Assembly (NCBI GenBank): GCA_035543235.1
Contig: DATKJV010000047.1
Location: 14,298-78,297 of the forward strand
Length of the DNA stretch: 64,000 nucleotides
From: Anaeromyxobacteraceae bacterium
GTDB taxonomy: Bacteria > Myxococcota > Myxococcia > Myxococcales > Anaeromyxobacteraceae
Direction: 5' to 3'
In this document: positions 3,671 through 56,543 of the stretch, piece by piece
Numbering within the stretch: position 1 is the first letter of the stretch
Layout: the number at the start of each line of letters is the position of its first letter
Notes under the pieces: generated by a model
Database searches by the model: none
What the model saw: only the letters and a program-made list of their open reading frames with translations
Told to the model about the DNA's origin: nothing
Program-made: the position numbers and the translations under genes

Positions 3671-3690
3671 CGGCTATGCTGCGCTGTACC

Positions 3691-37778: not shown

Positions 37779-38833
37779 TGCGCCACCGCGAGCTGCCGCT
37801 CCCGCCCTTCTACGACCCCGCGAACTGCGGGAGCTGGTCGTACCGGCCCGACGCCGCGAAGCTCTTCCGCCTCTCCGCTCCGTGGCGCGAGGAGCACGCC
37901 GTCGCGCCGTCGGGCGACGACGCCTTCGACCTGCACCTCCTCCTCGTCGACGAGCAGAAGGACTTCTGCCTGCCCGAAGGCGCGCTCTACGTGGGGGGCC
38001 GCAGCGGCACGGGCGCCATCGACGACACGCGGCGGCTCGTCGAGTGGACCTACCACAACCTGGCGAGCGTGACGCGCATCACCGCGACGCTCGACACCCA
38101 CCTCGCCTTCCAGATCTTCTTCGCCTCCTTCTGGGTCGACCGCGCCGGGCGCCCGGTGGAGCCACACCGCGTGGTCACGGCCGCGGAGGTGCGGGACGGC
38201 ACGCTCCGGCCGAACCCCGCGGTCGCCGCCTGGCTCGCCCGGGGCGACGAGGGGTGGCTGCGGGCCGAGGTCCTCCACTACTGCGAGACGCTCGAGCGCG
38301 AGGGCAAGTACCAGCTCTACCTGTGGCCCCCTCACTGCCTCTTGGGCGGGGACGGCCACACGCTCGTGGGCGCGGTGCAGGAGGCGCGGCTCTTCCACGC
38401 GTACGTGCGGGGAGCGCAGTCCTCCACGGAGGAGAAGGGCTCGAACCCCCTCACCGAGAACTACTCTGCGCTGCGGCCCGAGGTCCTCGTGCGGCACGAC
38501 CACAAGCCGCTCGGCGAGCGGAACGCGCGGCTCGTCGACTCGCTGCTCGCCTCGGGCGCGCTCGTCGTCGCGGGTCAGGCCTCGAGCCACTGCGTGAAGA
38601 GCACCGTCGAGGATCTCCTCGAGGAGATCCGCGGCCGCGACCCGTCGCTCGCGGCCCGCGTCTACCTGCTCGTGGACTGCATGTCCCCGGTCGCGGTGCC
38701 GGACGGCCGGGGTGGCTTCATCGCCGATTTCACTCCCGACGCGGAGCGGGCGCTCGCCTCGTTCGCACGAGCCGGCGTCCACCTCGTGGGGAGCGCGGAC
38801 CCGATCCGCACCTGGCCGGGCCTCGGCGGCTGA
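37778..38833 (+). CDS. isochorismatase-family hydrolase (long nicotinamidase-like protein)
   Basis: C-terminal 351 aa of ORF 36239..38833. 'LLLVDEQKDFC', 'LDTH', 'LWPPHCL' and 'VVAGQASSHCVKSTVEDL' carry the Asp/Lys/Cys triad context. ATGA overlap with the pncB stop. Confidence 0.75.
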   Translation: MRHRELPLPPFYDPANCGSWSYRPDAAKLFRLSAPWREEHAVAPSGDDAFDLHLLLVDEQKDFCLPEGALYVGGRSGTGAIDDTRRLVEWTYHNLASVTRITATLDTHLAFQIFFASFWVDRAGRPVEPHRVVTAAEVRDGTLRPNPAVAAWLARGDEGWLRAEVLHYCETLEREGKYQLYLWPPHCLLGGDGHTLVGAVQEARLFHAYVRGAQSSTEEKGSNPLTENYSALRPEVLVRHDHKPLGERNARLVDSLLASGALVVAGQASSHCVKSTVEDLLEEIRGRDPSLAARVYLLVDCMSPVAVPDGRGGFIADFTPDAERALASFARAGVHLVGSADPIRTWPGLGG

Positions 38834-38888
38834 CCCCCATTCGGAGCCTGTCGCAGGATCTCCCACACGGCGCTACACTGCCGCACCC

Positions 38889-39458
38889 ATGCCTTCGACC
38901 GAGCCTGGTTCCGAGGGGGAGCGACCCAGGCCTCCCGGCGCCCGGGAGGCCTCGTCGCCCGACCTTCTTTCTGCCGTGTTCCAGATGGCCTACGCGAGGC
39001 TCAGGCCCCGGAGCCTGCTAGCCGCTCCGCTCGCCGCCGCTCGCTGGCTCGAGCGCGTCGACGCCCGGATCACCCGGCGCGTCGTAGGGATCGACCCCGA
39101 TATGGAACGGGTGGCCCTCGCCCGTCGGAGGTACCGGCACCTGGGGGCGGCGCTCGAGGTCTACCGGGCGGATGCGCTCGAGGCGAGGCTGCAGCCCGAG
39201 GGCGACTTCGACCTGGTGCTCGTTGCGCTTCCGGTCGATGGCCTCGCTCCGGAGCCGCTCGCTGCCCTCCTCGCAGGCTGGGTCGCGCCCGGCGGCGCCT
39301 GCGCGATCGCGGGTCCCGGGGACCCCGAGGACGGAGGCGCCCTCGCGAGTCTCCTCGCCCGGTGCGGGATGAGGCGCGCCGGCTCCTTCGGGGCGCGCCA
39401 GGCTGGGGCAGCGCCCCTCCGGGTGACGCTTCTCCGGTCGCCCGGGCGCGCGAAATAG
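38889..39458 (+). CDS. hypothetical protein, methyltransferase-like remnant without a Gly-rich SAM loop
   Basis: ATG inside ORF 38712..39458. 'RRVVGIDPDMERVALARRRY', 'GDFDLVLVALPV' and 'VAPGGACAI' resemble class I MTase motifs II-V, but no GxGxG is visible. There are more A/T-ending codons than in neighbouring genes. Confidence 0.4.
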   Translation: MPSTEPGSEGERPRPPGAREASSPDLLSAVFQMAYARLRPRSLLAAPLAAARWLERVDARITRRVVGIDPDMERVALARRRYRHLGAALEVYRADALEARLQPEGDFDLVLVALPVDGLAPEPLAALLAGWVAPGGACAIAGPGDPEDGGALASLLARCGMRRAGSFGARQAGAAPLRVTLLRSPGRAK

Positions 39459-39505
39459 CCGCGCTCCCCGGCCGTAGCTATAGAGCGACGACGACGGAGG
39501 AGACG

Positions 39506-39853
39506 ATGACCTGCCCGTACTGCCGCACCGAGAACGAGCCCGGCGCGATCCGCTGCCGGCACTGCACGAGCTGGATCGAGGCCTCGCCCCGCCGCTCCGA
39601 GTGGTACCGGGCGCGGGAGGGCCGGATGATCGCGGGCGTGTGTCGCGGCCTCTCGGACCGGTTCGGCGTGCCCGTCGCGGCGCTCCGCCTGATCCTCCTC
39701 CTCTCCATCCTTCTCGGAGGGTGGGGCATCATCCTCTACGTCGCGCTCTGGATCGCGATGCCCATCGTGCCGGCACCTGCCGCCCCGGCGCGGGACCCCA
39801 TCGTCACGCCGCCGCCTCCGCCGGCCAAGCTCGAGCCCGGCACACAGGGCTGA
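39506..39853 (+). CDS. zinc-ribbon + PspC-domain membrane protein
   Basis: ATG inside ORF 39362..39853. 'CPYCRTENEPGAIRCRHC' zinc ribbon followed by the PspC signature 'RMIAGVCRGLSDRFGVPVAALRLILLL...ILYVALWIAMP'. Confidence 0.8.
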   Translation: MTCPYCRTENEPGAIRCRHCTSWIEASPRRSEWYRAREGRMIAGVCRGLSDRFGVPVAALRLILLLSILLGGWGIILYVALWIAMPIVPAPAAPARDPIVTPPPPPAKLEPGTQG

Positions 39854-39898
39854 CGGCAGGTCCGTCGCGCGCCTCGGACCGCTTTCGACGAGGGGCAC

Positions 39899-39940
39899 GG
39901 GTCCGGTCTCGCGGACCCCTCTCTCGCACGAGCGCGAGAG
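39899..39940. terminator. two tandem GC hairpins between convergent genes
   Basis: GGGTCCG-GTCTCG-CGGACCC (39899-39918) and CTCTCGC-ACGAGC-GCGAGAG (39921-39940). They lie between the PspC stop (39853) and the stop of the last complex gene (39982). No clear U-tract. Confidence 0.35.
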
Positions 39941-39981
39941 GTCGCGTCCGCTTCCGCCGCGGCCGGGTCAGCCGGGACGAG

Positions 39982-40812
39982 TCACGGGGGGCTCGGCTCG
40001 ACGATCCCCGTGCCGGCGACGCGCAGTTCCCCGCCCGCGATCCGCCCGAGGAGCCGGAGGATCCCGTCCATGAACGTGATGGGGTGGGGCGGGCAGCCCG
40101 GCACGAAGAGGTCGACGGGGATCTCGGGAAGGCCCGGGAGGCCGTTCGCCTGCGGGGGGCTGTCGCGGAAGATGCCGCCCGAGAGCGCGCAGGCCCCGAC
40201 CGCGACAACGATGCGCGGCGCCGGCGTGGCTTCCCAGGTCTTGAGCGTGGCGAGCCGCATGTTCTCCGAGACCGGGCCCGTCACCACGATGCCGTCTGCG
40301 TGGCGGGGCGAGGCGACGAACTGGACGCCGAAGCGGGAGAGGTCGAACTGGATGTTCCCGGACGCGTTCAGCTCCGCCTCGCATCCGTTGCACCCGGCGG
40401 CGGAGATCTGGCGAAGCCGGAGCGCCCGGCCCAGCACCTTCCGCACCTGCTCGTCGAGCGCCCGGGCGAGCGTCGGTGCGTCGCCCGAGACCACGAGCTC
40501 CTCCCGGGTCCGGGCCGCGAGCCGGTAGTCCCTCGTGAAGCGGATGGCGCCGTCGGGGCAGGCCTGCTCGCAGGCGGGGCAGAAGAGGCAGCGGCCGGTG
40601 TCGAGCCGCATGGACGGCTGCCCGGGGTCGAAGATGGCCTCGGTCGGGCAGGCGTCGGCGCAGGCGTGGCAGCCGTCCCGGCAGCGCGCCGGGTCGATGG
40701 CCGGCCGGCCTCGGAAGCGCTCCGGAAACCGCGCCGGTCCGTCGGGGTAGGCGACCGTCTGCGGGCCGAAGCGCGCCCGGAAGCGGACGATCTTCACGAT
40801 GTCGTCGATCAC
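39982..40812 (-). CDS. fused 2x[4Fe-4S] ferredoxin (HycF/HyfH-like) + NuoB/HycG/HyfI-like small subunit
   Basis: GTG start (VIDDIVKIV...) overlaps the upstream TGA (GTGA). 'CRDGCHACADACP' and 'CLFCPACEQACP' clusters. NuoB-like 'ISAAGCNGCEAE', 'ASPRHADGIVVTGPV', 'VAVGACALSGG' and 'VPGCPP'. Confidence 0.85.
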   Translation of the reverse strand: MIDDIVKIVRFRARFGPQTVAYPDGPARFPERFRGRPAIDPARCRDGCHACADACPTEAIFDPGQPSMRLDTGRCLFCPACEQACPDGAIRFTRDYRLAARTREELVVSGDAPTLARALDEQVRKVLGRALRLRQISAAGCNGCEAELNASGNIQFDLSRFGVQFVASPRHADGIVVTGPVSENMRLATLKTWEATPAPRIVVAVGACALSGGIFRDSPPQANGLPGLPEIPVDLFVPGCPPHPITFMDGILRLLGRIAGGELRVAGTGIVEPSPP

Positions 40813-42329
40813 AGGTCGTGCCCGCAGTACGAGAGGTTGAAGCTCTTGTTGCACAGGGGGAAGTCGGAGATCTGCTCCCCGCGCAATGCGAGGGCGAGGC
40901 CCATCCAGTTGTGGAAGGACGGGTCCTTGAGCTTGTAGCGTGCGAAGCGGCCGTCCTCGCCGGTCGAGACGGCGTGGGTGATCTCGCCGCGCCACCCCTC
41001 CATGAGCGAGACGACGAAGCGGCCCGGGGCGGGTGCCGCGCAGGAGGTCCGAACCGGGCCCGCCGGGAGCGCGCGGAGCTCGCGGACGACGAACTCGGCG
41101 CTGCGCTCCGACTCGAGGAGGCGCACCCAGGCTCGGGCGAAGACGTCCCCCGTCTCGCCGGTGACGGTCGGGACGTGGACGAAGCGGAAGACGCCGGTCG
41201 CGTGGTCGCGGCGGACGTCCCGGGAGACGCCACACGCGCGCGCCGCCGGGCCGACGAGCCCGAGCTGGCGGCAGGCGTCGCGGGACACGACGCCGGTCCC
41301 GTCCGTCCGGTTGCGGGCCGAGGGCGAGTCGAAGAAGAGGCGCGCCGCCCCCTCCACGGACTCCCATGCCTTCGAGACCTTGTCGGCGAGGCGGGCGGCC
41401 GCGCCCGCGTCGAGGTCGAAGCGCACGCCGCCGGGCACGACCAGCCCTCGCCCGAAGCGGTTGCCGCAGACCTCCGCGAGCGCGTTCAGGAAGTCGGCGC
41501 GGAGCGCGCCGCAGTAGGAGGCGGTCGGGAGGAAGCCGACGTCGCCGGCGAGCATGCCGATGTCGCCGACGTGGTTCGCGAGCCGCTCGAGCTCGAGGGC
41601 GATCCCCCGGAGCACCGCCGCCCGGGGGGGGATCTGGCAGCCGGCGAGGGCCTCCACCGCGTTCGCGTGCGCGAGCGCGTGGCCGATCACGGTGTCCCCG
41701 GCCACGGACTCGAGCAGCGCGACGGTGCGGCGGTCGGGTCCGCGCGCGAGCATGAGCTCGACGCCGCGGTGCTGGTAGCCGAGCACGATCTCGAGGAAGA
41801 AGACGTGCTCCCCGTGGCACTGGAACCGGAAGTGGCCGGGCTCGATGATGCCCGCGTGCACGGGCCCGACCGCCACCTCGTGCACCTCCTCGCCCTCGAC
41901 CCGGAAGAAGGGGTAGTCGCCGGGGATGTTCCGGGCGGGGGTCCCGCGCCCGAAGGGGTCGATGCCGGGGACGTGCGGCGGCTCGAAGCGCACCGGCTTG
42001 AGCCACGGGTGGCCCTCCGGTCGAACGCCGAACTGCTCGTACACCTCCCGCTCGAAGAGCTGCAGGGAGGGGCACTCCGGGGTGAGCGACGGGTAGGAGG
42101 CACCGACGCGGGTGGAGAGGACGCCCAGCTTTCCCTGGGCGTCGTCGGCGAGCACGGCCGTCACCACGACGCCGCCGTCCGCGTCCCGGCGGCCGTAGAA
42201 GGCGCTCGCCCGGCCGCCGGCGGCGACGACGTCGGAGACGATCTGCTGGAAGTCCTCGAGCGCGACGACCGGGACGAGCGCGGCGTCCACCGCCTCGGCG
42301 TTCCAGACCTGCAGCACGCGGGACGGCAT
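40809..42329 (-). CDS. HycE/HyfG-like (NuoC-NuoD fusion) large subunit lacking the [NiFe] cysteine ligands
   Basis: ATG (MPSRVLQVWNAEAV...) inside ORF 40809..43709. NuoC-like 'LQLFEREVYEQFGVRPEGHPWLKP'. NuoD/large-subunit 'GPVHAGIIEPGHFRFQCHGEHV', 'LGYQHRGVE' and 'ELERLANHVGD'. The L1 position reads 'ESVAGDTVIGH' and the C-terminus reads 'SFNLSYCGHDL'-stop. Confidence 0.9.
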   Translation of the reverse strand: MPSRVLQVWNAEAVDAALVPVVALEDFQQIVSDVVAAGGRASAFYGRRDADGGVVVTAVLADDAQGKLGVLSTRVGASYPSLTPECPSLQLFEREVYEQFGVRPEGHPWLKPVRFEPPHVPGIDPFGRGTPARNIPGDYPFFRVEGEEVHEVAVGPVHAGIIEPGHFRFQCHGEHVFFLEIVLGYQHRGVELMLARGPDRRTVALLESVAGDTVIGHALAHANAVEALAGCQIPPRAAVLRGIALELERLANHVGDIGMLAGDVGFLPTASYCGALRADFLNALAEVCGNRFGRGLVVPGGVRFDLDAGAAARLADKVSKAWESVEGAARLFFDSPSARNRTDGTGVVSRDACRQLGLVGPAARACGVSRDVRRDHATGVFRFVHVPTVTGETGDVFARAWVRLLESERSAEFVVRELRALPAGPVRTSCAAPAPGRFVVSLMEGWRGEITHAVSTGEDGRFARYKLKDPSFHNWMGLALALRGEQISDFPLCNKSFNLSYCGHDL

Positions 42330-42331
42330 GG

Positions 42332-43765
42332 CTAGCTCCCCCCCACGAGCGCGGCAGCGGAACGGAACAGCGCCGAGAGCGGCCCGGGCAGCCAGAGGCC
42401 GAGCGCGAGGACGGAGGCGAGGAGCGCGAGCGGCGGCCCGGCGGTGAGCCAGCTGTCGCGGAAGTCGGGCCGGTCCGGGGCACCCCGGTCGTCTCCCTGG
42501 ACCACCCGGAGGACCGTCGCGCCCATGCCGATGAAGACCACCGCGAGGAAGAGCAGGAAGAGGCCGCCCACGACGTATCGTCCCTTTCCGAGCGCGCCGT
42601 TCAGGATCAGGAACTCGCTCCAGAACGGGCTGAACGGGGGCGTGCCGGTCACGGCGAGGAACCCGGCCAGGAAGAGGGGGCCCGACAGCGGCAGCCGCCG
42701 GCTCGCCCCGCGGACCTCGTCGACCCGCTTCGAGCCGTAGGCCCGGTGGATGTTGCCGGCGGTGAGGAACAGGACCCCCTTCGCGAGCCCGTTGTTGAGC
42801 ACGTGGTAGAAGGCGCCGAAGACGGCGCCCCCGCCCAGGCCGAGCCCGATGGCGAGGATGCCCATGTGCTCGACGCTCGAGTACGCGAGCATGCGCTTGA
42901 AGTCCCGCTGCCCGGCCATGAACACGGCGGCGAGCGCCATGGAGAGGAGCCCGAGGCCGATGAGCGCGTCGCAGGCGAATGCGCCCTCGCCGGCGGCCCG
43001 GGCCACCTGGTAGACGCGGAAGACGGACAGGAAGGCGATGTTCGTCACGCCGCCCGCGAGCAGCGCGCCGAGGATCCCGGGAGCCTCCCCGTAGGCGTCG
43101 GGCTTCCACGAGTGCAGCGGGGCGAGCCCCATCTTCGTCCCGTAGCCGACGAGGAGGAAGACGAAGGCCGCCCGCACCCATGGCTTCGAGAGCTCGGGCC
43201 CCGACTCCACGAGCGCGCCGAGCAAGAGGGAGCGGGGTCCGCCCGGCCCGGCCCCCGAGAGGGCGACGAAGAAGGTGCCGAGGAGCGCGAGCGCGATCCC
43301 GAGCGAGGAGACGAGCAGGTACTTCCAGGCCGCCTCGAGCGAGCGGGCGTTCCGGTTGAAGTAGATGAGGGGCGCCGTCGCGAGCGTCGTGATCTCGATC
43401 GCCACCCAGAGGATGCCGAGGTGCTGGGCGAGCCCCACCACGGTCATGGCCGCGAGGAGCCCGAGGAGGCCGGAGACGAAGACCCGGTTGTCCTTCTCGG
43501 CGCGGCGTCGCAGGTAGCCCTGGGCGTACACGGCGGTCGCGAGGAAGAGGGCGCTCGCCGTCGTGAGGACGACCTTCCCGGCGGCGTCGAGGAAGAGCAG
43601 GCCCTCGAGGAGCGGCGGCTCCGGCCGGAGCCAGAGGAGAGCCATGCACGTGGCGTGGGCGAGGGCGCCCGCGAGGAGGAGGTACGGCCGGCTCCTCTGA
43701 GCGGGCCACGCGAAGGCCGCAGCGGCGAGGGCGAGCGGGACGAGGACGAGGAGCGCGGCGACCAC
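42332..43765 (-). CDS. HyfF/NuoN-like antiporter-type membrane subunit
   Basis: GTG start (VVAALLVLVPL...) 2 nt after the upstream TAG, inside ORF 42332..44584. 'GYGTKMGLAPLHSWKPDAYGEAP', 'RMLAYSSVEHMG' and about 14 TM segments. Confidence 0.8.
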   Translation of the reverse strand: MVAALLVLVPLALAAAAFAWPAQRSRPYLLLAGALAHATCMALLWLRPEPPLLEGLLFLDAAGKVVLTTASALFLATAVYAQGYLRRRAEKDNRVFVSGLLGLLAAMTVVGLAQHLGILWVAIEITTLATAPLIYFNRNARSLEAAWKYLLVSSLGIALALLGTFFVALSGAGPGGPRSLLLGALVESGPELSKPWVRAAFVFLLVGYGTKMGLAPLHSWKPDAYGEAPGILGALLAGGVTNIAFLSVFRVYQVARAAGEGAFACDALIGLGLLSMALAAVFMAGQRDFKRMLAYSSVEHMGILAIGLGLGGGAVFGAFYHVLNNGLAKGVLFLTAGNIHRAYGSKRVDEVRGASRRLPLSGPLFLAGFLAVTGTPPFSPFWSEFLILNGALGKGRYVVGGLFLLFLAVVFIGMGATVLRVVQGDDRGAPDRPDFRDSWLTAGPPLALLASVLALGLWLPGPLSALFRSAAALVGGS

Positions 43766-43767
43766 GG

Positions 43768-44415
43768 CTAGTCCTTGAGCGACGCCATGGCGTCGGTGTC
43801 GAGGGAGGCGAACTCCCGGTTGATCTGGAAGATGACGATGCCCATCACGAAGACCGCCGCGAGGAGGTCGAGGAGCACGCCGGCCTCCACCATCACCGGC
43901 ATGAAGTCGGTGAGCAGGAGGCCGAAGACGAACACCCCGTTCTCGAGAACGAGGAAGCCGAGCACCTGGGTGACGGCCTTCCTCCGGCTGACGACGAGGA
44001 GCAGCCCCGTCCAGACCGTCGCGAGCGCCGTCGGGACGAGGAAGGTGTGCATCTCGGGGGTGGGGAGCGGGAGCCCCCGCGAGAACGCGAAGGCGAGCGC
44101 GACGCCCGCGCCCCCGAGCAGCAGAGAGGGGACGTATCCGACGATGGGCTCCACCTCCCGCCGGATGGCTGCCTCGCGAATGGCCCGGAACATCAGCCAG
44201 GGGATGAAGAAGGCCTTGATGACGAGCGCCCCCCCGGCGACGAGCAGCACGTGCCCGATGTCGTGGGACGGAGATCCGAGCATGAGCGCGAGCGCGGAGA
44301 GGAGGGCTCCCTGGAGCGCGACCGCCCGGATCGCCGCTCCCAGCCGGCTCGAGGCGAGCACGAACAGGTTCACGACGACCACCAGGATGAAGGTCATGTC
44401 GATCCAGGAGGCCAT
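43768..44415 (-). CDS. HyfE-like membrane subunit
   Basis: ATG (MASWIDMTFILVVVVNLFVL...) inside ORF 43768..45153. 215 aa and about 7 TM segments. 'GFLVLENGVFVFGL' is typical of HyfE/NuoK-like subunits. Confidence 0.8.
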   Translation of the reverse strand: MASWIDMTFILVVVVNLFVLASSRLGAAIRAVALQGALLSALALMLGSPSHDIGHVLLVAGGALVIKAFFIPWLMFRAIREAAIRREVEPIVGYVPSLLLGGAGVALAFAFSRGLPLPTPEMHTFLVPTALATVWTGLLLVVSRRKAVTQVLGFLVLENGVFVFGLLLTDFMPVMVEAGVLLDLLAAVFVMGIVIFQINREFASLDTDAMASLKD

Positions 44416-44417
44416 GG

Positions 44418-45332
44418 TCACCGGAGCAGGAGGACGAGGGCGAAGGTGGAAAGCACGGAGGCGCCGACGAGCATCTGGGGCACGCGGGTGAGGCGGAGCC
44501 GCGCCATGACGCTCTCCACGGCCCCGACGAGCACGGCGAAGCCGAGGAGGCCGGCCAGGAACGCGGCCTCGGCCGCGACGCCACCCGCCCCGGGAAGGCC
44601 GCCGAAGGCGAGGCGCGCGACGACAGCGGCGAAGAGGAAGAGCTTCATCGAGGCCCCGTAGAGGATCATGGCGAAGTCGGGGCCGGAGTGGTCGAGCACC
44701 ATCACCTCGTGAATCATGGTGAGCTCGAGGTGCGTGTTCGGGTCGTCCACGGGGATGCGGGCGTTCTCGGCGAGAGCGACGACGAACAGCGCGATCGCGG
44801 AGAGCAGGAGCGCCGGGGCCGCATCGTGCCAGGCCGGGCCGAGCGCGGGACCCAGCATGCCGGAGAGCGAGAGGGTCCCGGTCGCGCGGGCGAGCACCAC
44901 GAAGCAGAGGAAGAGCGCCGGCTCCGCGATGCTCGCGAAGGAAACCTCGCGCGCCGCTCCCATGCCCTCGAAGGAGGACCCGGTGTCGAGCGCCGCGAGC
45001 GCCGTGAAGAAGCGCCCCAGGGCCAGCAGATACGCGAAGAGCAGGAAGTCGCCGCGAAAGCCCACGGCGGCGCGGCCGCCGGCGATCGGCAGGAGGAGCC
45101 CCGCGAGGAAGACCGCCGCGAGCCCCACCGCCGGGCCTGCCCGGAACACCCACGTCGTCGTCCGGCTGTAGACGGCGCCCTTTCGCACGAGCTTCCCGAG
45201 GTCGTAGTACGGCTGCAGGAGCGGAGGGCCTCGCCTGCCCGCGAAGAGGGCCTTCACCCGATTCACCACGCCGAGCAGGAGCGGCGGGGCGAGGAGCAGG
45301 AGACCGAGATGGAAGAGGACGTGGAGGACCAT
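44418..45332 (-). CDS. HycD/HyfC/NuoH-like membrane subunit
   Basis: ATG (MVLHVLFHLGLLLLAPPLLLGVVNRVKALFAGRRGPPLLQPYYDL...) inside ORF 44418..45857. 'LDTGSSFEGMGAAREV', 'DDPNTHLELTMIHEVMVLDHSGPDF' and 'ESVMARLRL' align by eye along E. coli HycD. Confidence 0.9.
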   Translation of the reverse strand: MVLHVLFHLGLLLLAPPLLLGVVNRVKALFAGRRGPPLLQPYYDLGKLVRKGAVYSRTTTWVFRAGPAVGLAAVFLAGLLLPIAGGRAAVGFRGDFLLFAYLLALGRFFTALAALDTGSSFEGMGAAREVSFASIAEPALFLCFVVLARATGTLSLSGMLGPALGPAWHDAAPALLLSAIALFVVALAENARIPVDDPNTHLELTMIHEVMVLDHSGPDFAMILYGASMKLFLFAAVVARLAFGGLPGAGGVAAEAAFLAGLLGFAVLVGAVESVMARLRLTRVPQMLVGASVLSTFALVLLLR

Positions 45333-45333
45333 G

Positions 45334-47313
45334 TCACCACCAGACGAAACGCCAGGCGAGCAGCGCGACGAGCGCCGCCACGACGAGGACGGCGTAGAAG
45401 TGGACGCGCCCCGGAAAGAGGCCCCGCACCTTCCCCGCCGCCGCCTCGCAGGCGTGGGCGGCGGGGACGATGGCGCGGTCGAGGACGACGTCCGGCACCT
45501 CCGTCGCGAACCGGGCCGAGCGCGGGAAGAGGCCGCGCGGCTGTGCGAGTTCGACCTTCGCGAGGAGCACGAACCGGAAGCCGTCGACGAGGAACTGCGC
45601 GAAGGAGGACCCCGTGTACTCCATCCGCGCCGTGGGAGCGGCGAAGCCGCAGCCCCAGGTCTCGGAGGCCGCGGCGCTTCGCACGAGCCGCGCCCGGATC
45701 CAGGCGAGCGCGCCGGCGGCGAGGAGCAGCGCCGCGGCGACGACGCCCACCCGCCGCGCCGCGCCCGCGGCGTCCGCGGCGGCCGCGTGGGCGGCCGGGA
45801 GCCCTGCCCAGTCGAAGGCCGCCCGGGCGATGGCCGGCAGCGCGAGGGAGGGTCCAAGGCCGATGGCCAGGCAGGCCGCGGCGAGGAGCGCCATCGGGAG
45901 CAGCATCGCCGCGGGGGACTCGTGGGCGCCCGTGGCCTCCGCCGTGCGCGGGTTCCCGAGAAAGGCCGTCCCGTGGACCTTGGCGAAGCATGCGGCGGCG
46001 AGGCCGCCGATGAAGGCGAGGATCGGGGCCGCGAGCGCGACGTAGGCGAGCCGGTCGCCGCGGGGCAGGGCGAGGCCGGCGAGGGAACCCAGCGCGACGA
46101 GCCACTCCGAGACGAAGCCGTTCAGGGGAGGCAGCCCGCTGATGGCCGCCGCTCCCACGAGGAAGAAGAGCGCCGTGAAGGGCATCGGGCGCGCGAGGCC
46201 TCCCATGCGCTCGATGTCTCGCGTGCCGGTGGCGCGCTGGACCGACCCGGCCCCGAAGAAAAGGAGGGACTTGAAGAGCGCGTGGTTCACGACGTGCAGG
46301 AGCGCTCCCCCGAGGCCCAGGGTCACGAGAACGGCGTCGCCGCGCGCCCGGCCCACCAGCGCGACGCCGGCCCCCATGGCGATGATCCCGATGTTCTCGA
46401 CGGAGTGGTAGGCGAGAAGACGCTTCACGTCGTGCTGGGCCAGCGCGATCGCGACCCCCAGGACCCCCGAGACCGCGCCGAGGGCGAGGAGCACGAGGCC
46501 CCAGGACGCGGGCGGGGCGTCGAAGAACCCCGTGGTGCGCAGCAGCCCGTAGATCCCGGTCTTGAGAAGCACCCCCGACATGAGCGCCGACACGTGGCTG
46601 GGGGCGGCCGCGTGCGCGCCGGGGAGCCAGAAGTGCAGGGGGACGAGGCCGGCCTTGAGGCCGAAGGCCACGAGCGCCAGCGCGTACAGCCCCCCGCCCC
46701 CCGCCGCGGGCAGCCCCCGCCAGTCGGCGAAGTCGAAGGAGCCGCGGGCGCCCCCCACCGCGCAGAAGAGAGCGAAGAGCGCGAAGGTCCCGACGTGCGC
46801 GGCGGCGAGGTACACCCATCCAGCGCGGAGCGCCTCCGGCCTCTGATCCTCGGTGCGCACGAGAGCGAAGCCGGCGACCGCCATGACCTCCCAGGCGGCC
46901 AGGAAGAGGAGCGCGTTGTCGGCGACCACGACGAGGGCCATTGCGCCGGTGATGACGCCGAAGAAGAGCTGTAGCCGCACGGCCTTCCAGCCGAGCTTCG
47001 CCTGGGGCCAGTAGGCGAGTCCGTAGACGGATCCGAGCGCGGGAAGCGCGAGGACCGGGACGAGGAACACGGCGCCCAGCGCATCCAGGCGAAGCGCGAA
47101 GGAGGCGAGCGGCTCGTGCCACGGGAGCCGGATGGCGAAGCCGCCCGCTCCCGCGAGCACGCGTGCGCTCGCGGCGCCGCCGAGCGCCGCCGCCGCGCAC
47201 ATCGCGGCACACGAGAGCCTCTGGCCGAGCACCGGTCGGCCCCGGAGGACGAGGCCGAAGAGGCCGCTCCCGGACGCGAGCGCCATCGCCCAGACCACGA
47301 GCGCGGGGGTCAC
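45334..47313 (-). CDS. HyfB/HycC/NuoL-like antiporter-type membrane subunit (copy 2)
   Basis: GTG start (VTPALVVWAMALAS...) overlaps the upstream TGA (GTGA), inside ORF 45334..49398. 'FLAAWEVMAV', 'GLKAGLVPLHFWLPGAHAAAPSHVSALMSGVLLKTGIYG', 'KRLLAYHSVENIG' and the C-terminal 'ETWGCGF..PTARMEYT' extension. Confidence 0.85.
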   Translation of the reverse strand: MTPALVVWAMALASGSGLFGLVLRGRPVLGQRLSCAAMCAAAALGGAASARVLAGAGGFAIRLPWHEPLASFALRLDALGAVFLVPVLALPALGSVYGLAYWPQAKLGWKAVRLQLFFGVITGAMALVVVADNALLFLAAWEVMAVAGFALVRTEDQRPEALRAGWVYLAAAHVGTFALFALFCAVGGARGSFDFADWRGLPAAGGGGLYALALVAFGLKAGLVPLHFWLPGAHAAAPSHVSALMSGVLLKTGIYGLLRTTGFFDAPPASWGLVLLALGAVSGVLGVAIALAQHDVKRLLAYHSVENIGIIAMGAGVALVGRARGDAVLVTLGLGGALLHVVNHALFKSLLFFGAGSVQRATGTRDIERMGGLARPMPFTALFFLVGAAAISGLPPLNGFVSEWLVALGSLAGLALPRGDRLAYVALAAPILAFIGGLAAACFAKVHGTAFLGNPRTAEATGAHESPAAMLLPMALLAAACLAIGLGPSLALPAIARAAFDWAGLPAAHAAAADAAGAARRVGVVAAALLLAAGALAWIRARLVRSAAASETWGCGFAAPTARMEYTGSSFAQFLVDGFRFVLLAKVELAQPRGLFPRSARFATEVPDVVLDRAIVPAAHACEAAAGKVRGLFPGRVHFYAVLVVAALVALLAWRFVWW

Positions 47314-49304
47314 CGCATCCTCCCGGCGATCACCATGGCCGCGAGGAGCGCGAGGAGCGTCGCGAGCGTGTAGAGCAGCTGGAGGTTGAGCCTCCCCGCC
47401 TGGAAGCGTCGCAGCCGGCTCATCCGGTCCGCGAGCCCCCGGAAGAGAGGGTCGAAGAGCCGCGTCCGCGCCGGATCCTGGGGCTCGGTGCGGAACGAGC
47501 TCGTTCGCGGGAAGAGCCCGTGCGGAGGGGCGAAGCGCGTCCGGGGTTGCAGGGACCGGGGGACGAGGCCCGCGAGCAGGAACTGTGCGTACGACGAGGC
47601 CGTGTACTCCATGCGCGGCGTGGGCTCGCCGAAGCCGCAGCCCCAGGTCTCGGCGCGGCGCACATTGCGGGAGCGGACGGCGCGGCGCGCCACCGCGGCC
47701 GCCGCGAGCGCGGCCGCGAGAAGCGCGAGCCCCATCCCGCGCAGCGGCCCCGCCGCGGAGGCGGCGACGTCCGCGAGGGCGGCGGTGGGCGCCCCGGCCA
47801 CCTGGGCCGCCGCCGGCGCGACCAGGCGAAGGACCGGTCCGGGGAGGACTCCGACGAGAACGCAGGCCGCGGCGAGCGCGAGGAGCGGGCCGAAGAGGAG
47901 CGCGGACGGCTCGCGAGCCGCGGCGGCCGCCCCGGTGCGCGGTGCACCGAGGAGCGACATGCCCGCGAGCCGGGTGAAGGCGATCGCCGCGAGCGCGCCG
48001 ACGAGCGCCAGGACGGAGGCGCCGAGGAGGGCGACGAGCGAGCCGACGCCCTGGCTCGCGGTCGCGCCGTCGAAGAGGCCGAGGTAGAGGAGCCACTCGG
48101 AGGCGAAGCCCGCGAGCGGAGGCATCGCCGAGAGCGCGGCGGCCCCGACGAGGAACGCGGTGCCCGTGAGCGGCAGGCGGGCGAGGAGCCCTCCCATCCG
48201 CTCCACGTCCCGGGTGTGGACCTCGTGAGCCAGGGCGCCCCCGCCCATGAAGGCGAGCGACTTCATCAGGGCGTGCGTCCAGACGTGGAAGAGCGCGCCT
48301 CCGAAGCCCAGGGCGGCGACGCGCGGCTCGCCCGCGGCACTGCCGATCACGCCCAGCCCGAGGCCGAGGAAGACGATGCCTACGTTCTCCACGCTCGAGT
48401 ACGCGAGCGCTCGCTTCACGTCCGCCTGGCCGAGCGCGAGCGTGATCGCGACGAGCGCGCTCGCGAGCCCGACGGCGGCGAGGACGAGCCCGAATCCCAC
48501 GGGGGCGGCGGGCACGAAGCCGAGCAGGCGGAGCACGCCGTAGACCCCGGTCTTGATCATGACCGCGGAGAGCAGCGCGGACACGTGGCTCGGCGCCGCC
48601 GGGTGGGCCTCCGGCAGCCAGACGTGGAGGGGCACGAGGCCCGCCTTGGTGCCGAAGCCGACCAGCCCGAGCGCGAAGAGGAGCGCGGGCGCCCGCACGC
48701 CGTCGCGCAGCGCCTCGAAGCGGCCGAAGTCGAACCCGCCGGCGCCCGAGGCGAGGAGCACGAAGAGCGCGAAGAGGAAGGCCGTCCCGAGGTGAGACGC
48801 CACGAGGAACGTGTAGCCCGCGCTGCGGACGTCGGCGTGCTCGTCCTCGAAGGTGACGAGCGCGAACGTGGCGACGGTCATGACCTCCCAGGCCACGAGG
48901 AAGAGCACCCCGTCCGCCGCCGCGAAGACGAGCGCGATAGACGCGACGAGCAGGTCGAAGAAGGCGGCGAATGCCGCGAGCGATCGCCGGGACGCGACGC
49001 GGCCCATGTAGCCCGCGCCGTAGATGGAGGCGGGAACCGCGAGTGCGAAGAGCGGGGTGAGAAAGAAGGCCGCGAGCGGGTCGAGCCGCAGGTGGAAGGC
49101 GCCGGCCGGCACCCCCCAGGCGAGCGAGAGCTCGGCGGCCGGGGCGCCGAGGAGGACCGGGACCACGCCGGCGAGCCCCGTGGCCCCGCCCAGGCAGGCG
49201 GCGCCCGAGGAGATCGCCAGCGCGAGGCGCCGCCGCCTGCCGGCAGCGAGCGCCGCGATGGCGCCCGCGAGCAGGATGCCGATGGCGCCGAGGAGCAGCC
49301 TCAA
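47310..49304 (-). CDS. HyfB/HycC/NuoL-like antiporter-type membrane subunit (copy 1)
   Basis: Inside ORF 47310..50066. There is no ATG near the N-terminus. A TTG (LRLLLGAIGILLAG...) overlapping the upstream TGA (TTGA) is the most plausible start. 'FLVAWEVMTV', 'GTKAGLVPLHVWLPEAHPAAPSHVSALLSAVMIKTGVYG', 'KRALAYSSVENVG' and 'ETWGCGFGEPTPRMEYT'. Confidence 0.8.
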   Translation of the reverse strand: MRLLLGAIGILLAGAIAALAAGRRRRLALAISSGAACLGGATGLAGVVPVLLGAPAAELSLAWGVPAGAFHLRLDPLAAFFLTPLFALAVPASIYGAGYMGRVASRRSLAAFAAFFDLLVASIALVFAAADGVLFLVAWEVMTVATFALVTFEDEHADVRSAGYTFLVASHLGTAFLFALFVLLASGAGGFDFGRFEALRDGVRAPALLFALGLVGFGTKAGLVPLHVWLPEAHPAAPSHVSALLSAVMIKTGVYGVLRLLGFVPAAPVGFGLVLAAVGLASALVAITLALGQADVKRALAYSSVENVGIVFLGLGLGVIGSAAGEPRVAALGFGGALFHVWTHALMKSLAFMGGGALAHEVHTRDVERMGGLLARLPLTGTAFLVGAAALSAMPPLAGFASEWLLYLGLFDGATASQGVGSLVALLGASVLALVGALAAIAFTRLAGMSLLGAPRTGAAAAAREPSALLFGPLLALAAACVLVGVLPGPVLRLVAPAAAQVAGAPTAALADVAASAAGPLRGMGLALLAAALAAAAVARRAVRSRNVRRAETWGCGFGEPTPRMEYTASSYAQFLLAGLVPRSLQPRTRFAPPHGLFPRTSSFRTEPQDPARTRLFDPLFRGLADRMSRLRRFQAGRLNLQLLYTLATLLALLAAMVIAGRMR

Positions 49305-50014
49305 GCGCCGTCTCTCCTCGCAAGTCCCGCGGCCCGCTGCTCGGCGAGCGTCCGCTCGATGCGCTCGATCTCCGCGAGGATGTCTTCGGACGGTGCACGC
49401 TCGCGGAGCTTCTCCACCAATCCCGGCTCCCGCAGCGCCGTCGCGAGGGAGGCGAGCAGGTGGAGGTGGGCGCGCGTCGACGGGCTGATGAGGAGGCAGA
49501 GGGTGTGGACCGGCAGCCCCTCCGCTTCCCCGAAGTCGAAGGGCTCGTCGAGCAGGAAGACCGCGACCGCCGGCCGGTCGACGCGCAGGACGATCGGGTC
49601 GCGGGGGTGGGGGATGGCGATCCCGTTGCCGAGGGAGGTCGAGCCGAGCCGCTCCCGCGCGAGAAGCATCCCGAGGAGGAAGCCCCGGTCGAATTCGGGT
49701 GGCGCGGGGGCGCGCTCCACCACTTGCCGTAGGACCTCGGTCTTGTCGGTTCCGCGGATGCCGCGGTGGATGCCGCCCGCGCGAACCGCCTCGGAGAGCG
49801 GCGGAAGCCCCTTGGGGACGAGGCCCGGATCCTCCAAGATCTCGGCGGACACCGGGATCTTGTGCTGTGCGGCCCACTCGAGGAGCTCCACGCGGTTGAA
49901 GCGGTACCGGTCGTCGACCTCCTCCGCGGGGAGCTCGCCCCGCCTCACCCAACGCTCGAGCACTTGCTCGGTGACACCGAGGAGCCGGGCTGCGTCGCGA
50001 ACGGTCAGTTGCAT
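49301..50014 (-). CDS. HTH (excisionase/MerR-like) + PTS EIIA(Ntr/fructose)-type domain regulator
   Basis: ATG (MQLTVRDAARLLGVTEQVLERWVRRGELPA...) inside ORF 49301..51757; 237 aa. EIIA_2 signature 'RERLGSTSLGNGIAIPHPRD', which includes the phosphorylatable His, plus 'LPVHTLCLLISP...HLHLLASLA'. Confidence 0.85.
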   Translation of the reverse strand: MQLTVRDAARLLGVTEQVLERWVRRGELPAEEVDDRYRFNRVELLEWAAQHKIPVSAEILEDPGLVPKGLPPLSEAVRAGGIHRGIRGTDKTEVLRQVVERAPAPPEFDRGFLLGMLLARERLGSTSLGNGIAIPHPRDPIVLRVDRPAVAVFLLDEPFDFGEAEGLPVHTLCLLISPSTRAHLHLLASLATALREPGLVEKLRERAPSEDILAEIERIERTLAEQRAAGLARRDGA

Positions 50015-50079
50015 CCAGAGGAGGTCCCGAGACCTCCCCTGTACGGCAAACGAGACGGGGCCGCAAGTCGAGCGACGAT

Positions 50080-51669
50080 CTAGAGATCGCTCAGCGGACC
50101 GACCACCTCGAGCACGTCCACCGTGCCGGTTCGGCCCCGCAACGCCCGCGGGCCGAGCTCCTGGAAAGCGAACGCCTCCCGGGCGCGGTCGGAGGTCTCC
50201 CGGGCGACGAGCACGGTGCCGGGCTCGGCCGTCGACTCCAGGCGCGCTGCGATGTTCACGGCGTCCCCGAGCACCGTGAACTCGAGGCGATCCGGCGATC
50301 CGAAGTTTCCCGACACCACGCGGCCGGTGTTCACGCCAATCCGGATCGAGAAGCGCCGGTCCGCCGGGAAGCGCTTGTTCATCTCCTCCACGCGCTTGAG
50401 CATCTTCCAGGCGCAGCGCACGGCGCGGACTGCGCCGTCGGCTAGCGGCACGGGCGCCCCGAACACCGCCATGAGGCCGTCTCCGATGAACTTGTCGAGG
50501 GTGCCCTTCTCCTCGAAGATCGCCTCGGTCATCGAGCGGAAGTAGTCCCGCAGGAGGGCCGCGAGCTCCATCGGCGGAAGCCTCTCGGTGAGCCCCGTGA
50601 ACCCCTGGACGTCCGAGAAGAGGACCGTCACGTCCTCGCGCACCTGGGCGTCGAGGGGGTCGCGGTCCTGCTGCTCCTGCGAGAGGATCATGCTCGCCAC
50701 GTCGGGCGAGAAGTGGCGGAGCAGCTTCTTGCGCTGCTGCTCCATCGCGACCGCGCGCTCGAGGAAGCGCGCCCGCTCGATGGCGAGCGCGGTCTGGTAG
50801 CCGACGACGGTCGTGAGCTCGAGGTCGTCGGCGGTGAAGGGGTCGACGAAGCCGCGATCGAGGACGAGCATGCCCAGGATCCGGTTGTCCGCCCAGATGG
50901 GCACGCACAGGCAGGAGCGGATGCCCTGGGCGATGACGGACTGGCTCGCCGCGAACCGCAGGTCCTGCTGGGCGTCGATCGTGAGAAGGCCGGCACGGCT
51001 CTTCGCGGCGGTGGCGACCACGGTCTCGGAGAAGCGGGGCGCCGAACCCGGGGGGTCGCTCGCCCGCACCACCATCCGTCCCTGCTCGTCCATCAGGAGG
51101 AGCGACGACCGCTCGGCGCGCACCGCCGCGGCGACGGTGTGCAGAATCTTGGAGAGGCAGGTGTCGAGGTCCGGAGCGTCGATGAGGGCCTTGCCGATGT
51201 CGTTCAGGACCGCGATCTGGCGACGCGAGGCGGGGCCGCGCCCGGTCGTGCGCCGGCTGTTCGCGTCGGTGTCGCGCCTGGGCTCGACGTCGTGCGCCTG
51301 CTTCACCTCGTTCTGCAGGTCGGCGAGATAGCGCACGACGGTCCCGTGCTCGGAGAGCAACGGGGTGGGGGGCCGGGGGGTCCGGTCGTCCCGGAGGTCG
51401 ACGACGGTCTTCCCGAAGCGCAGCTTGGAGCCGGGCTGCAGCTGCGACTCGCGAACGCGCGTCTCGTTCACCCAGGTGCCGTTGCGGCTGTCGAGGTCGA
51501 CGAGCCAGAGCTGGTCGCCGCGGCGCTCGAACATGGCGTGCATGCTCGAGATCCACGGGTCGGCGATCTGCACCTGGCATTCGGCCGAGCGCCCGAGGAC
51601 CGTGGGCACGTCGGGCAGGAAGAAGACGGTCCCGCCGCAAATCCCGTTCTCGACGAACAGCTCTGCCAC
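50080..51669 (-). CDS. FHA - GAF - class III nucleotidyl (adenylate/guanylate) cyclase
   Basis: 529-aa ORF. FHA 'TVLGRSAECQVQIADPWISSMHAMFERRGDQLWLVDLDSRNGTWVNE'. Central GAF. Cyclase 'VTVLFSDVQGFTGLTE', 'KFIGDGLMAVFGAP', 'IGVNTGRVVSGNFG' and 'FTVLGDAVNIAARLE'. Confidence 0.9.
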   Translation of the reverse strand: MAELFVENGICGGTVFFLPDVPTVLGRSAECQVQIADPWISSMHAMFERRGDQLWLVDLDSRNGTWVNETRVRESQLQPGSKLRFGKTVVDLRDDRTPRPPTPLLSEHGTVVRYLADLQNEVKQAHDVEPRRDTDANSRRTTGRGPASRRQIAVLNDIGKALIDAPDLDTCLSKILHTVAAAVRAERSSLLLMDEQGRMVVRASDPPGSAPRFSETVVATAAKSRAGLLTIDAQQDLRFAASQSVIAQGIRSCLCVPIWADNRILGMLVLDRGFVDPFTADDLELTTVVGYQTALAIERARFLERAVAMEQQRKKLLRHFSPDVASMILSQEQQDRDPLDAQVREDVTVLFSDVQGFTGLTERLPPMELAALLRDYFRSMTEAIFEEKGTLDKFIGDGLMAVFGAPVPLADGAVRAVRCAWKMLKRVEEMNKRFPADRRFSIRIGVNTGRVVSGNFGSPDRLEFTVLGDAVNIAARLESTAEPGTVLVARETSDRAREAFAFQELGPRALRGRTGTVDVLEVVGPLSDL

Positions 51670-51741
51670 TCGGTCTCGGCCTCTCTTTGCCTGGGGGTTC
51701 CGGCCGCTTGTGGTAGCTTAAACCAAGAATCGCTCTCGCGT

Positions 51742-56493: not shown

Positions 56494-56543
56494 CGCCCGG
56501 ACCCCCTTGAGGCCGCGCCAGGCCCCGCACCGGGAGCGATTCG

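Follow-up and report, generated by a model that had tools for sequence, protein, structure and literature searches.

A membrane-bound complex of the energy-converting-hydrogenase-related (Ehr) class is encoded on the minus strand of the 64,000-nucleotide (nt) stretch of Anaeromyxobacteraceae bacterium DNA analysed here (GenBank assembly GCA_035543235.1, contig DATKJV010000047.1, positions 14,298–78,297; hereafter the window). An earlier note, made by reading the letters of the window, had described seven coupled minus-strand genes in the order of the Escherichia coli Hyf operon (B, B, C, E, F, G, H+I), and Pfam, NCBIfam and BLASTP comparisons with E. coli K-12 Hyf confirmed both the genes and their order. 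In the direction of transcription these are EhrA-1 (G1; 47310–49304; 664 amino acids (aa), TTG start), a HyfB/NuoL-like antiporter-type membrane subunit; its paralogue EhrA-2 (G2; 45334–47313; 659 aa), a second HyfB/NuoL-like subunit; EhrB (G3; 44418–45332; 304 aa), a HyfC/HycD/NuoH-like membrane subunit; EhrC (G4; 43768–44415; 215 aa), a HyfE-like small membrane subunit related to NuoK/NuoJ; EhrD (G5; 42332–43765; 477 aa), a HyfF/NuoN-like antiporter-type subunit; EhrL (G6; 40809–42329; 506 aa), the large subunit, a NuoC-NuoD fusion with a HycE/HyfG-like fold; and EhrS (G7; 39982–40812; 276 aa), the small subunit, in which HyfH/HycF/NuoI-like and HyfI/HycG/NuoB-like domains are fused. Start-codon mapping gave junctions of -4, +1, +2, +2, +2 and -4 nt from G1 to G7, exactly as described, with the start of EhrA-2 overlapping the stop of EhrA-1 (GTGA); an alternative GTG start for G4 at 44421 would turn its junction into a -4 overlap. 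The extent originally given for the operon (39982–49304) holds for these seven coupled genes but leaves out an eighth, G0 (49301–50014, minus strand; 237 aa), which lies upstream of ehrA-1, encodes an HTH_17 domain and a PtsN-like PTS_EIIA_2 domain, and makes the operon begin at least at 50014. The downstream boundary is formed by a convergent gene for a PspC-domain protein (39506–39853).

The window has a G+C content of 73%, and all of its reading frames are crowded with long spurious open reading frames (ORFs); genes were therefore placed with a third-position GC (GC3) frame plot together with start-codon mapping. The nearest named relatives of the window proteins belong to metagenome bins of Anaeromyxobacteraceae (Myxococcota), and an independent gene caller yielded the same gene set with near-identical junctions in an 86%-identical relative (L083). 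In BLASTP searches against the E. coli K-12 hyf operon, the best matches of G1 to G6 were HyfB, HyfB, HyfC, HyfE, HyfF and HyfG, and EhrS matched HyfH over residues 5–108 and HyfI over residues 118–256; HyfA and HyfJ had no match among the operon proteins, and HyfD was never the top match for any of them. No subunit of the operon attained any NCBIfam equivalog cutoff, and labels like 'hydrogenase 4 subunit B' are accordingly not to be read at face value.

EhrL carries the 30-kDa and 49-kDa complex I domains of Pfam, and its best NCBIfam model is NuoD, at 178 bits versus a cutoff of 360. In HMMER alignments, the positions of the [NiFe]-ligating residues C241, C244, C531 and C534 of HycE are occupied in EhrL by A210, T213, S500 and G503, in agreement with the earlier reading of this subunit as ligand-less. 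At the N-terminal CxxC motif (L1), A210-G-D-T213 of EhrL stands opposite C241-G-I-C244 of HycE and CGIC of HyfG, and at the C-terminal CxxC motif (L2) EhrL has S500-Y-C-G503 where E. coli HyfG has CYSC. EhrL ends at L506, three residues past G503, while HyfG runs ~35 residues further. Judged by these alignments, all four [NiFe] cysteines and the cleavable C-terminal tail are absent from EhrL, and with both CxxC pairs replaced the protein is not a canonical group 4 [NiFe] hydrogenase with intact ligands. An AlphaFold model of EhrL built from 78 sequences (predicted local distance difference test, pLDDT, 95.9) had its best structural match in HycE of E. coli formate hydrogenlyase (FHL; 7z0s_E, template modelling (TM) score 0.90) and its second-best match in E. 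coli NuoCD (TM score 0.82–0.84). HMMER searches against solved structures likewise found none closer to EhrL than HycE of E. coli FHL.

The distribution of the ligands across relatives of EhrL was followed in a HMMER search of 1.84 billion cluster representatives, which returned 921 proteins at E<1e-30; 78 full-length top representatives out of these were used for a family alignment. The [NiFe] ligands were absent in 73 of the 78, and CGxC plus CxxC were present in the other five. Members of the ligand-less group (n=73) share [S/A]210, G211, D212 (67/73) and [S/T]213 at the first site and S500, Y501, x502, G503 (73/73), D505 and L506 at the C-terminus, and D263 and D469-P470 are residues specific to this group. 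In a rough tree (neighbour-joining, no bootstrap, E. coli HyfG as the root), all ligand-less sequences lay together, apart from the CxxC-bearing ones. These comparisons indicate that the absence of the ligands is a family-wide signature and not a lesion, and the residues concerned (GD[ST], C-terminal SYxG-x-DL, D263 and D469) provide a signature that separates Ehr from true group-4 hydrogenases.

Within this alignment the former metal pocket of EhrL appears not to be degraded, being now conserved, polar and rich in carboxylates, with hydroxyls as well (E163, D212, T213, D263, S500 and G503). E163, which is kept in both the ligand-less and the CxxC-bearing groups, aligns with E21 of MbhL, the proton-relay glutamate beside the NiFe site. 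In an ungapped HMMER alignment (query position minus 124), D263 is the counterpart of Asp139 of Thermus thermophilus Nqo4, the partner of His38 in the quinone site of complex I; His38 itself aligns, by sequence alignment only, with I162 or P164 of EhrL. The beta1-beta2 loop of EhrL is of the FHL type (EPGHFRF).

As the earlier note had stated, EhrS keeps the four cysteines of the proximal cluster, in the motifs CNGC, GAC and PGCPP. Together with the ferredoxin motifs Cx3Cx2Cx3CP and Cx2Cx2Cx3CP, this makes up the full set of 12 cysteines that three [4Fe-4S] clusters require. The note's 'two extra ferredoxin clusters' are present, but the part that holds them is a fused HyfH/HycF/NuoI homologue, as indicated by BLASTP and by matches in the PDB: residues ~5–110 correspond to a HyfH-like domain with 2x[4Fe-4S] (PDB matches HycF, 2e-16, and also MbsN and NuoI), and residues ~118–260 to a HyfI/NuoB-like domain with the cysteines of an N2-type cluster (MbhJ, 6e-32; HycG, 3e-30), in line with the Pfam assignments (4Fe-4S dicluster and NuoB). 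Each of the 12 cysteines was 84–96% conserved among 70 orthologues drawn from other genomes, a shortfall from 100% that is within the noise of crude ORF extraction.

Ech- and Mbh-type enzymes take electrons from ferredoxin via a NuoI-like domain. Since the ferredoxin part of EhrS is a homologue of HyfH/HycF/NuoI, the electron-entry module of these ferredoxin-dependent relatives is present, and the suggestion that the complex has no electron-input partner stands for the HyfA/HycB-formate dehydrogenase type, which was not found, but not for the NuoI-like module of EhrS. Pfam scans of the window, with the remaining ORFs read by eye, revealed no hyp, hycI, formate dehydrogenase or HyfA/HycB genes, as had been claimed, and Pfam scans gave no genes for a NuoE/F/G NADH module in the operon or the window. 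The search for partners was extended to a synteny set of 80 related loci from a species-representative genome collection, onto which the window proteins were mapped. No hyp or HycI-type endopeptidase gene lay within 6 kb of the operon in these loci, and clustering of all ORFs over the same distance gave no recurrent partner oxidoreductase gene; only G0, extra copies of EhrA and sporadic transporters recurred.

In the membrane part of the complex, the Pfam domain Proton_antipo_M was detected in G1, G2 and G5. EhrA-1 (Proton_antipo_M, 1e-48) is 32% identical to E. coli HyfB (6e-90) and scores 538 bits against the NCBIfam model 'hydrogenase 4 subunit B', under its 667-bit cutoff; EhrA-1 and EhrA-2 are full-length paralogues, 45% identical. 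EhrB matches PF00146 (NADHdh, NuoH; 8e-35) and is 32% identical to HyfC (2e-26), EhrC has a full-length match to the NCBIfam HyfE model (1.8e-23, below cutoff), a weak Oxidored_q2 (NuoK-type) Pfam match and a BLASTP match to HyfE (1e-11), and EhrD (Proton_antipo_M, 2e-45) is 36% identical to HyfF (2.5e-74). G1, G2 and G5 all possess a glutamate in transmembrane helix (TM) 5 (WE or IE), lysines in TM7 (K..P.H.W), TM8 (KR..AYSS) and TM11, and a glutamate in TM12, so the three antiporter-like subunits, by motif, retain the canonical charged residues of Nuo and Mrp proteins. The C-terminal extensions of EhrA-1 and EhrA-2 (~aa 550–600) also share a motif, ETWGCGF..P..RMEYT.SS.AQF.

The order A-B-C-D-L-S was found throughout the 80 loci, Geobacterales included. 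Their hosts include Planctomycetota, Verrucomicrobiota, Myxococcota, Geobacterales, Gemmatimonadota and Acidobacteriota, and further Spirochaetota, Elusimicrobiota, Omnitrophota, Hydrogenedentota, Fibrobacterota and Actinomycetota. There was one HyfB-like gene in 37 loci and two, as in the window, in 14. Selection on the operon was estimated as the ratio of non-synonymous to synonymous substitution rates (dN/dS; Nei-Gojobori) relative to L083, in which synteny is identical from the divergent Ser/Thr kinase gene to the aconitase gene. Values were 0.22 for G0, 0.34 for EhrA-1, 0.29 for EhrA-2, 0.20 for EhrB, 0.12 for EhrC, 0.23 for EhrD, and 0.16 for both EhrL and EhrS, compared with 0.21 for the neighbouring NAPRTase and 0.22 for the neighbouring aconitase. 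All eight genes are thus, by this measure, under purifying selection like the neighbouring housekeeping genes, and with their reading frames intact there is no sign that they are disrupted. Among relatives of EhrL, whose mean column identity is 35%, 17 columns are invariant and 36 near-invariant. Taken together, the conserved FeS cysteines, the charged residues of the antiporter-like subunits and purifying selection support the earlier expectation that the complex probably still moves electrons and ions, and, with the ligands absent family-wide, the label of an Ehr-type complex that is not a hydrogenase is borne out.

Two further observations were made on the synteny set. A gene for a SulP-family anion transporter adjoins the Ehr operon in 5 of the 80 loci (e.g. 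L068, 2576–4375), which is too rare for a conserved partner. A second, more divergent Ehr-like cluster (35–40% identity) lies beside the first in a Geobacteraceae metagenome-assembled genome (MAG), a Verrucomicrobia MAG and a Variovorax plasmid (L037, 13269–19911; L069, 2529–9944; L082, 14571–19398), showing that paralogous Ehr systems can coexist in tandem.

What this synteny adds to the picture of the known class is a PtsN-like regulator gene that accompanies Ehr operons across many phyla. The TGA stop of G0 overlaps the TTG start of ehrA-1 by 4 nt (TTGA). Pfam identifies an N-terminal excisionase/MerR-type helix-turn-helix (HTH) domain (HTH_17, 3e-12) and a C-terminal phosphotransferase system (PTS) EIIA-2 domain (1e-22), NCBIfam matches are to PtsN and to an excisionase domain, and in the PDB the closest matches are PtsN (EIIA-Ntr) proteins, whose GVAIPH aligns with GIAIPH of G0. 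The sequence GNGIAIPH fits the phospho-His motif of EIIA-2 (G-x-G-[IV]-A-[IL]-P-H), and all 45 orthologues share its His136. Because G0 scores 61 bits against a PtsN equivalog cutoff of 139 and has an added HTH domain, it is described as having a PtsN-like domain, not as PtsN itself. Of the 51 loci with enough upstream sequence, which come from many phyla, 37 have a G0 gene immediately upstream in the same orientation, and several others have one beside a second EhrA gene; only noise ORFs were found upstream in place of a regulator in the loci that have no G0. These homologues are annotated just as 'PTS IIA' or 'nitrogen regulatory IIA', and we found no paper on the linkage of a G0-type gene with an Ehr operon. 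The domain composition and position of G0 suggest that it is probably a phosphorylation-controlled transcription regulator of the operon. In four loci (L052, L073, L075 and L080) G0 sits between two EhrA genes, and in two Geobacteraceae loci (L037 and L041) G0 and EhrA form a divergent pair, unlike in the window; that G0 stays beside EhrA when the order varies could reflect a closer functional tie than plain operon regulation.

Upstream of G0, a 65-nt spacer (50015–50079, minus strand) separates it from a cyclase gene and holds GACTTGCG...TTGCCGTACAGGG, which is common to the 86% relative and is a candidate promoter or operator. A sigma-70 consensus scan of 38800–52000 gave no promoter-like site, the spacer included, the sole terminator-like site in a terminator scan of the same region falls within a gene, and an Rfam scan of the entire window gave no matches. 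Reading the conserved upstream motif as a sigma-54 site was rejected by eye, the spacing being wrong, and a hairpin over the ribosome-binding site of G0 (GGAGGTC-TCGG-GACCTCC) was discarded as it is not conserved in the 86% relative. The cyclase gene itself (FHA-GAF-adenylate/guanylate cyclase; 50080–51669, minus strand), which precedes G0 by 65 nt in the same orientation, faces a divergent gene for a Ser/Thr protein kinase (51742–53313, plus strand), followed by one for a TPR-PEGA protein (53338–54306). This arrangement is kept in the 86% relative and not in more distant loci, and may feed signals into the operon in a lineage-specific way.

The reading that we favour, while giving it slightly less than an even chance, is that the complex may be a ferredoxin-linked, ion-translocating and probably reversible oxidoreductase with an acceptor other than the proton, regulated by G0. 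Ferredoxin, as the soluble low-potential carrier, would dock on the NuoI-like domain of EhrS, and electrons would pass through the two ferredoxin-type [4Fe-4S] clusters to the NuoB-type cluster and on to an acceptor at the interface of L, S and B. That acceptor would not be a proton at a NiFe site, and the leading guess for it is a membrane quinone. Protonation changes at E163, D212 and D263 would then drive ion translocation via EhrB/C and the three antiporter-like subunits. Turnover would probably be reversible, so that ferredoxin could be reduced by quinol at the expense of the proton-motive force, and G0 would probably switch transcription by the phosphorylation state of EIIA, that is, by the nitrogen/carbon (PTS-Ntr) status of the cell. 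The ferredoxin path is favoured because all of the entry and pumping parts of Ech, Mbh and photosynthetic NDH-1 are present and no dedicated dehydrogenase gene travels along; the lack of a recurrent partner oxidoreductase in the 80 loci agrees with a soluble donor and an acceptor that are both ubiquitous. Quinone is the obvious candidate, and the counterpart of Asp139 (D263) is retained, yet the acceptor is the weak point of the proposal.

Several lines of evidence weigh against this proposal. Tyr87 of Nqo4, a canonical quinone ligand, is gone, aligning (in a comparison of sequences only) with the invariant G211 of EhrL. Marreiros et al. reportedly concluded in 2013 that Ehr has no quinone site. 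No biochemistry exists for any member of the subtype found in the window, and the Hyq complex of rhizobia and the Mycobacterium tuberculosis versions have no NuoI-like domain, so that ferredoxin entry by way of this domain cannot be universal. Some Ehr-bearing lineages are reportedly without quinone biosynthesis (PMC6349859), and Azorhizobium mutants show H2 phenotypes (PMC3357923).

NifA control of the Azorhizobium hyq operon offers an independent hint of nitrogen-status control. Regulators tied to nitrogen or carbon in two unrelated subtypes (G0 here, NifA for hyq) suggest that reverse flow to ferredoxin may be the important direction, and it is speculation on our part that reverse electron flow explains the Azorhizobium H2 phenotypes indirectly. 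A more specific version, which we consider rather unlikely, is that Ehr and G0 together constitute a proton-motive-force-driven quinol:ferredoxin oxidoreductase controlled by nitrogen/carbon status, a functional analogue of Fix and Rnf. If this were true, Ehr would supply low-potential electrons to nitrogenase, the reductive tricarboxylic acid (rTCA) cycle or 2-oxoacid synthases, and it would link the NifA control of hyq and the indirect H2 phenotypes with the occurrence of Ehr in rTCA-using Nitrospira and with the extra antiporter-like subunit (more H+ per electron pair).

The same data bear on other explanations, one being a cryptic hydrogenase, in which H2 would be oxidised or evolved at a non-canonical site of EhrL and electrons exchanged with the quinone pool, like Hyq. 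HyqG is 38% identical to EhrL, has the SGDS / SYSGHDL signature and nests in the ligand-less group, and deletion of hyq alters H2 metabolism in Azorhizobium (PMC3357923); these phenotypes, however, could be indirect, via altered electron supply to nitrogenase or another enzyme, and the authors of the Hyq work, who had no cell-free assay, doubt a NiFe centre. The window's subtype moreover differs from Hyq in small subunit and regulator. With the four Ni/Fe-ligating cysteines gone (one position being an invariant glycine), no C-terminal maturation tail, neither hyp nor hycI genes in the window, the complex occurring in M. tuberculosis, which lacks hyp genes (PMC6728331), and Ehr genes of Nitrospira moscoviensis that H2 does not induce (PMC12342949), we regard hydrogenase activity as distinctly unlikely. 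A partner encoded elsewhere would be needed if the complex were instead an FHL-like respiratory module, with a dehydrogenase such as formate dehydrogenase docking on EhrS. This idea draws on E. coli FHL as the nearest solved relative, on the higher abundance of all Ehr subunits in formate-grown Geobacter sulfurreducens (PMC7894505), on a formate dehydrogenase-Ehr complex proposed for Margulisbacteria (PMC6349859), and on the formate-tetrahydrofolate ligase gene 12 kb off in the window. It is improbable in our view, since no HyfA/HycB-type connector was found, no gene for formate dehydrogenase or another oxidoreductase recurs within 6 kb in the 80 loci or is present in the 64-kb window, and the loss of the NiFe site excludes H2 as the product, which leaves the complex in need of an acceptor.

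The antiporter-like subunits lend themselves to yet another explanation, in which FeS clusters gate or regulate an Mrp-like transporter, making the complex a redox-sensing cation/proton antiporter with no catalytic turnover. Three Mrp/Nuo antiporter-like subunits with intact charged residues, the lack of an identifiable remaining substrate site in EhrL, and the regulation of K+ transport by the PtsN family in E. coli would all suit such a role; against this, a three-cluster wire and a NuoCD/NuoB/NuoH coupling module are strictly conserved, which would be costly for a mere sensor, and known Mrp antiporters function without any of these subunits, leaving it as improbable as the FHL-like module. 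Finally, the operon could be a non-functional relic on which selection has relaxed, a view put forward for Geobacter KN400, where ehrA-2 and ehrB gained missense mutations in long-term electrode culture (PMC13194489), and the loss of the catalytic metal site would agree with decay. All frames are intact and tightly coupled, however, the dN/dS values of 0.12–0.34 equal those of the neighbouring housekeeping genes and indicate that the operon is not a relic, the invariant and near-invariant columns of EhrL persist despite its low mean identity, and gene order is identical across at least ten phyla. The relic explanation is on these grounds effectively refuted, and we assign it almost no probability.

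Elsewhere in the window, the gene for formate-tetrahydrofolate ligase (26064–27764, minus strand; PF01268, 4e-227) lies near those for citrate synthase and phosphoenolpyruvate (PEP) carboxykinase; no other gene of the window relates to formate, and this one is not conserved near Ehr elsewhere. Other genes read by eye include those for PEP carboxykinase, citrate synthase, FtsH, PanB/C, TsaD and KsgA. Proteins with DUF4388 are encoded at 7485–9212 (plus strand), 9330–11162 (plus strand) and 58616–59902 (minus strand), the domain occurring with DnaJ/TPR, with a response-regulator receiver and TPR, or on its own; such proteins are typical of signalling in myxobacteria and have no relation to the Ehr operon. 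A putative nucleotidyltransferase with cyclic nucleotide (cNMP)-binding, CBS and DUF294 domains (632–2446, minus strand) adjoins an RNase T-family exonuclease gene (7–576, minus strand), and the window is rich in cyclic-nucleotide signalling genes, comprising this DUF294 protein, the cyclase and GAF proteins (3655–4143 and 56511–57548).

The operon of the window belongs to a known class, which has been described repeatedly since 2005. Ehr is said to have been first described in G. sulfurreducens by Coppi in 2005 and generalised by Marreiros et al. in 2013. Its hosts include Geobacter, M. tuberculosis and about half of Nitrospirales, to which the loci compared here add many Planctomycetota, Verrucomicrobiota, Gemmatimonadota and Acidobacteriota; two decades on, annotations still read 'hydrogenase-4' or 'NADH dehydrogenase', and no reaction has been assigned to the class. 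The normal purifying selection seen here argues against the recent view of a dead relic, and the linkage to a PtsN-like HTH gene across phyla provides a handle for finding the inducing condition. The statement that no role has been established for the class holds in that publications as late as 2026 still assign no function to Ehr (PMC7894505, PMC10284858, PMC12342949, PMC6728331, PMC6349859), but it passes over the Azorhizobium Hyq complex, claimed from mutant phenotypes to be an 'endo-hydrogenase'.

By its traits, the operon has both the proximal-cluster cysteines and NuoH- and NuoL-like membrane subunits of group 4 hydrogenases and the composition of Ehr, with NuoL-like (one or two), NuoH-, HyfE- and NuoN-like subunits, large and small subunits, and no dehydrogenase module. 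E. coli Hyf/Hyc (FHL-1, PDB 7Z0S) provides the best sequence or structure match for every subunit, and the Hyf gene order is preserved, whereas features of Hyf/Hyc itself are missing or fused in the window (the CGIC and CYSC ligands, the cleaved C-terminal tail, HyfA/HycB, HyfD and HyfJ); unlike the window, Hyf/Hyc has separate HyfH and HyfI and undergoes hyp/hycI maturation. With complex I and ferredoxin-dependent NDH-1 the window shares homologues of NuoB, C, D, H, I, L, M/N and K/J; complex I differs in having NuoE/F/G, NuoA, a separate NuoJ and Tyr87 of Nqo4, where EhrL has glycine. The M. tuberculosis Rv0081-Rv0087 'hyc' locus begins with an HTH regulator, Rv0081, of the ArsR type. This locus is likewise classed as Ehr and as not a hydrogenase, with its function unknown (PMC6728331, PMC6901956), and by description its order differs from that of the window, NuoB-like Rv0082 coming first and the HyfB-like gene being single.

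Among the closest counterparts is the complex of G. sulfurreducens, whose subunits GSU0739-0745 are designated ehrA-1, ehrA-2, ehrB, ehrC, ehrD, ehrL and ehrS (PMC7894505), with the same seven subunits and order, two HyfB-like genes, a ligand-less large subunit and a small FeS subunit. In Geobacterales loci (L025, L031, L037, L039 and L041), EhrL is 52–54% identical to that of the window and the order is the same, and in L025, L037, L039 and L041 a G0-type gene is also found beside an EhrA gene. The operon of the window can be assigned, from its gene content, to a Geobacter/Anaeromyxobacter subtype, in which HyfH and HyfI are fused into one small subunit and the regulator is a PtsN-like HTH protein.

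Hyq, encoded by hyqRBCEFGI in Azorhizobium caulinodans, has a HyqG without both CxxC motifs according to its authors (PMC2650096, PMC3357923), and the operon depends on NifA and sigma-54 (PMC2650096). A. caulinodans deleted for hyq evolved ~15-fold more H2 while fixing N2, and ~80% of the H2 produced under microaerobic conditions depended on hyq, also when nifK was mutated (PMC3357923); no cell-free assay was reported, and a NiFe centre was considered 'uncertain, if not unlikely' (PMC3357923, PMC2650096). In a copy on a Rhizobium plasmid (L081), HyqG is 38% identical to EhrL of the window and has the SGDS and SYSGHDL motifs, and on the rough, unbootstrapped neighbour-joining tree HyqG nests inside the ligand-less group. 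Like the window, Hyq has a ligand-less HyfG-like subunit, the order B-C-E-F-G-I and a first gene for an HTH regulator that overlaps hyfB by 4 nt; unlike it, Hyq has one HyfB-like gene, a NuoB-only small subunit (177 aa) with no ferredoxin domain, NifA control, and a claim to hydrogenase activity, made for A. caulinodans only. Equating HyqR with G0 was rejected, HyqR being a 106-aa XRE-type HTH protein with no similarity to G0. We found no paper connecting the work on Ehr with the Hyq 'endo-hydrogenase' experiments, bar a passing mention in PMC4758237, the only one to link the two. On motif and tree evidence, Hyq is a different subtype of the same ligand-less family, and its mutant phenotypes are thereby the only functional data for that family.

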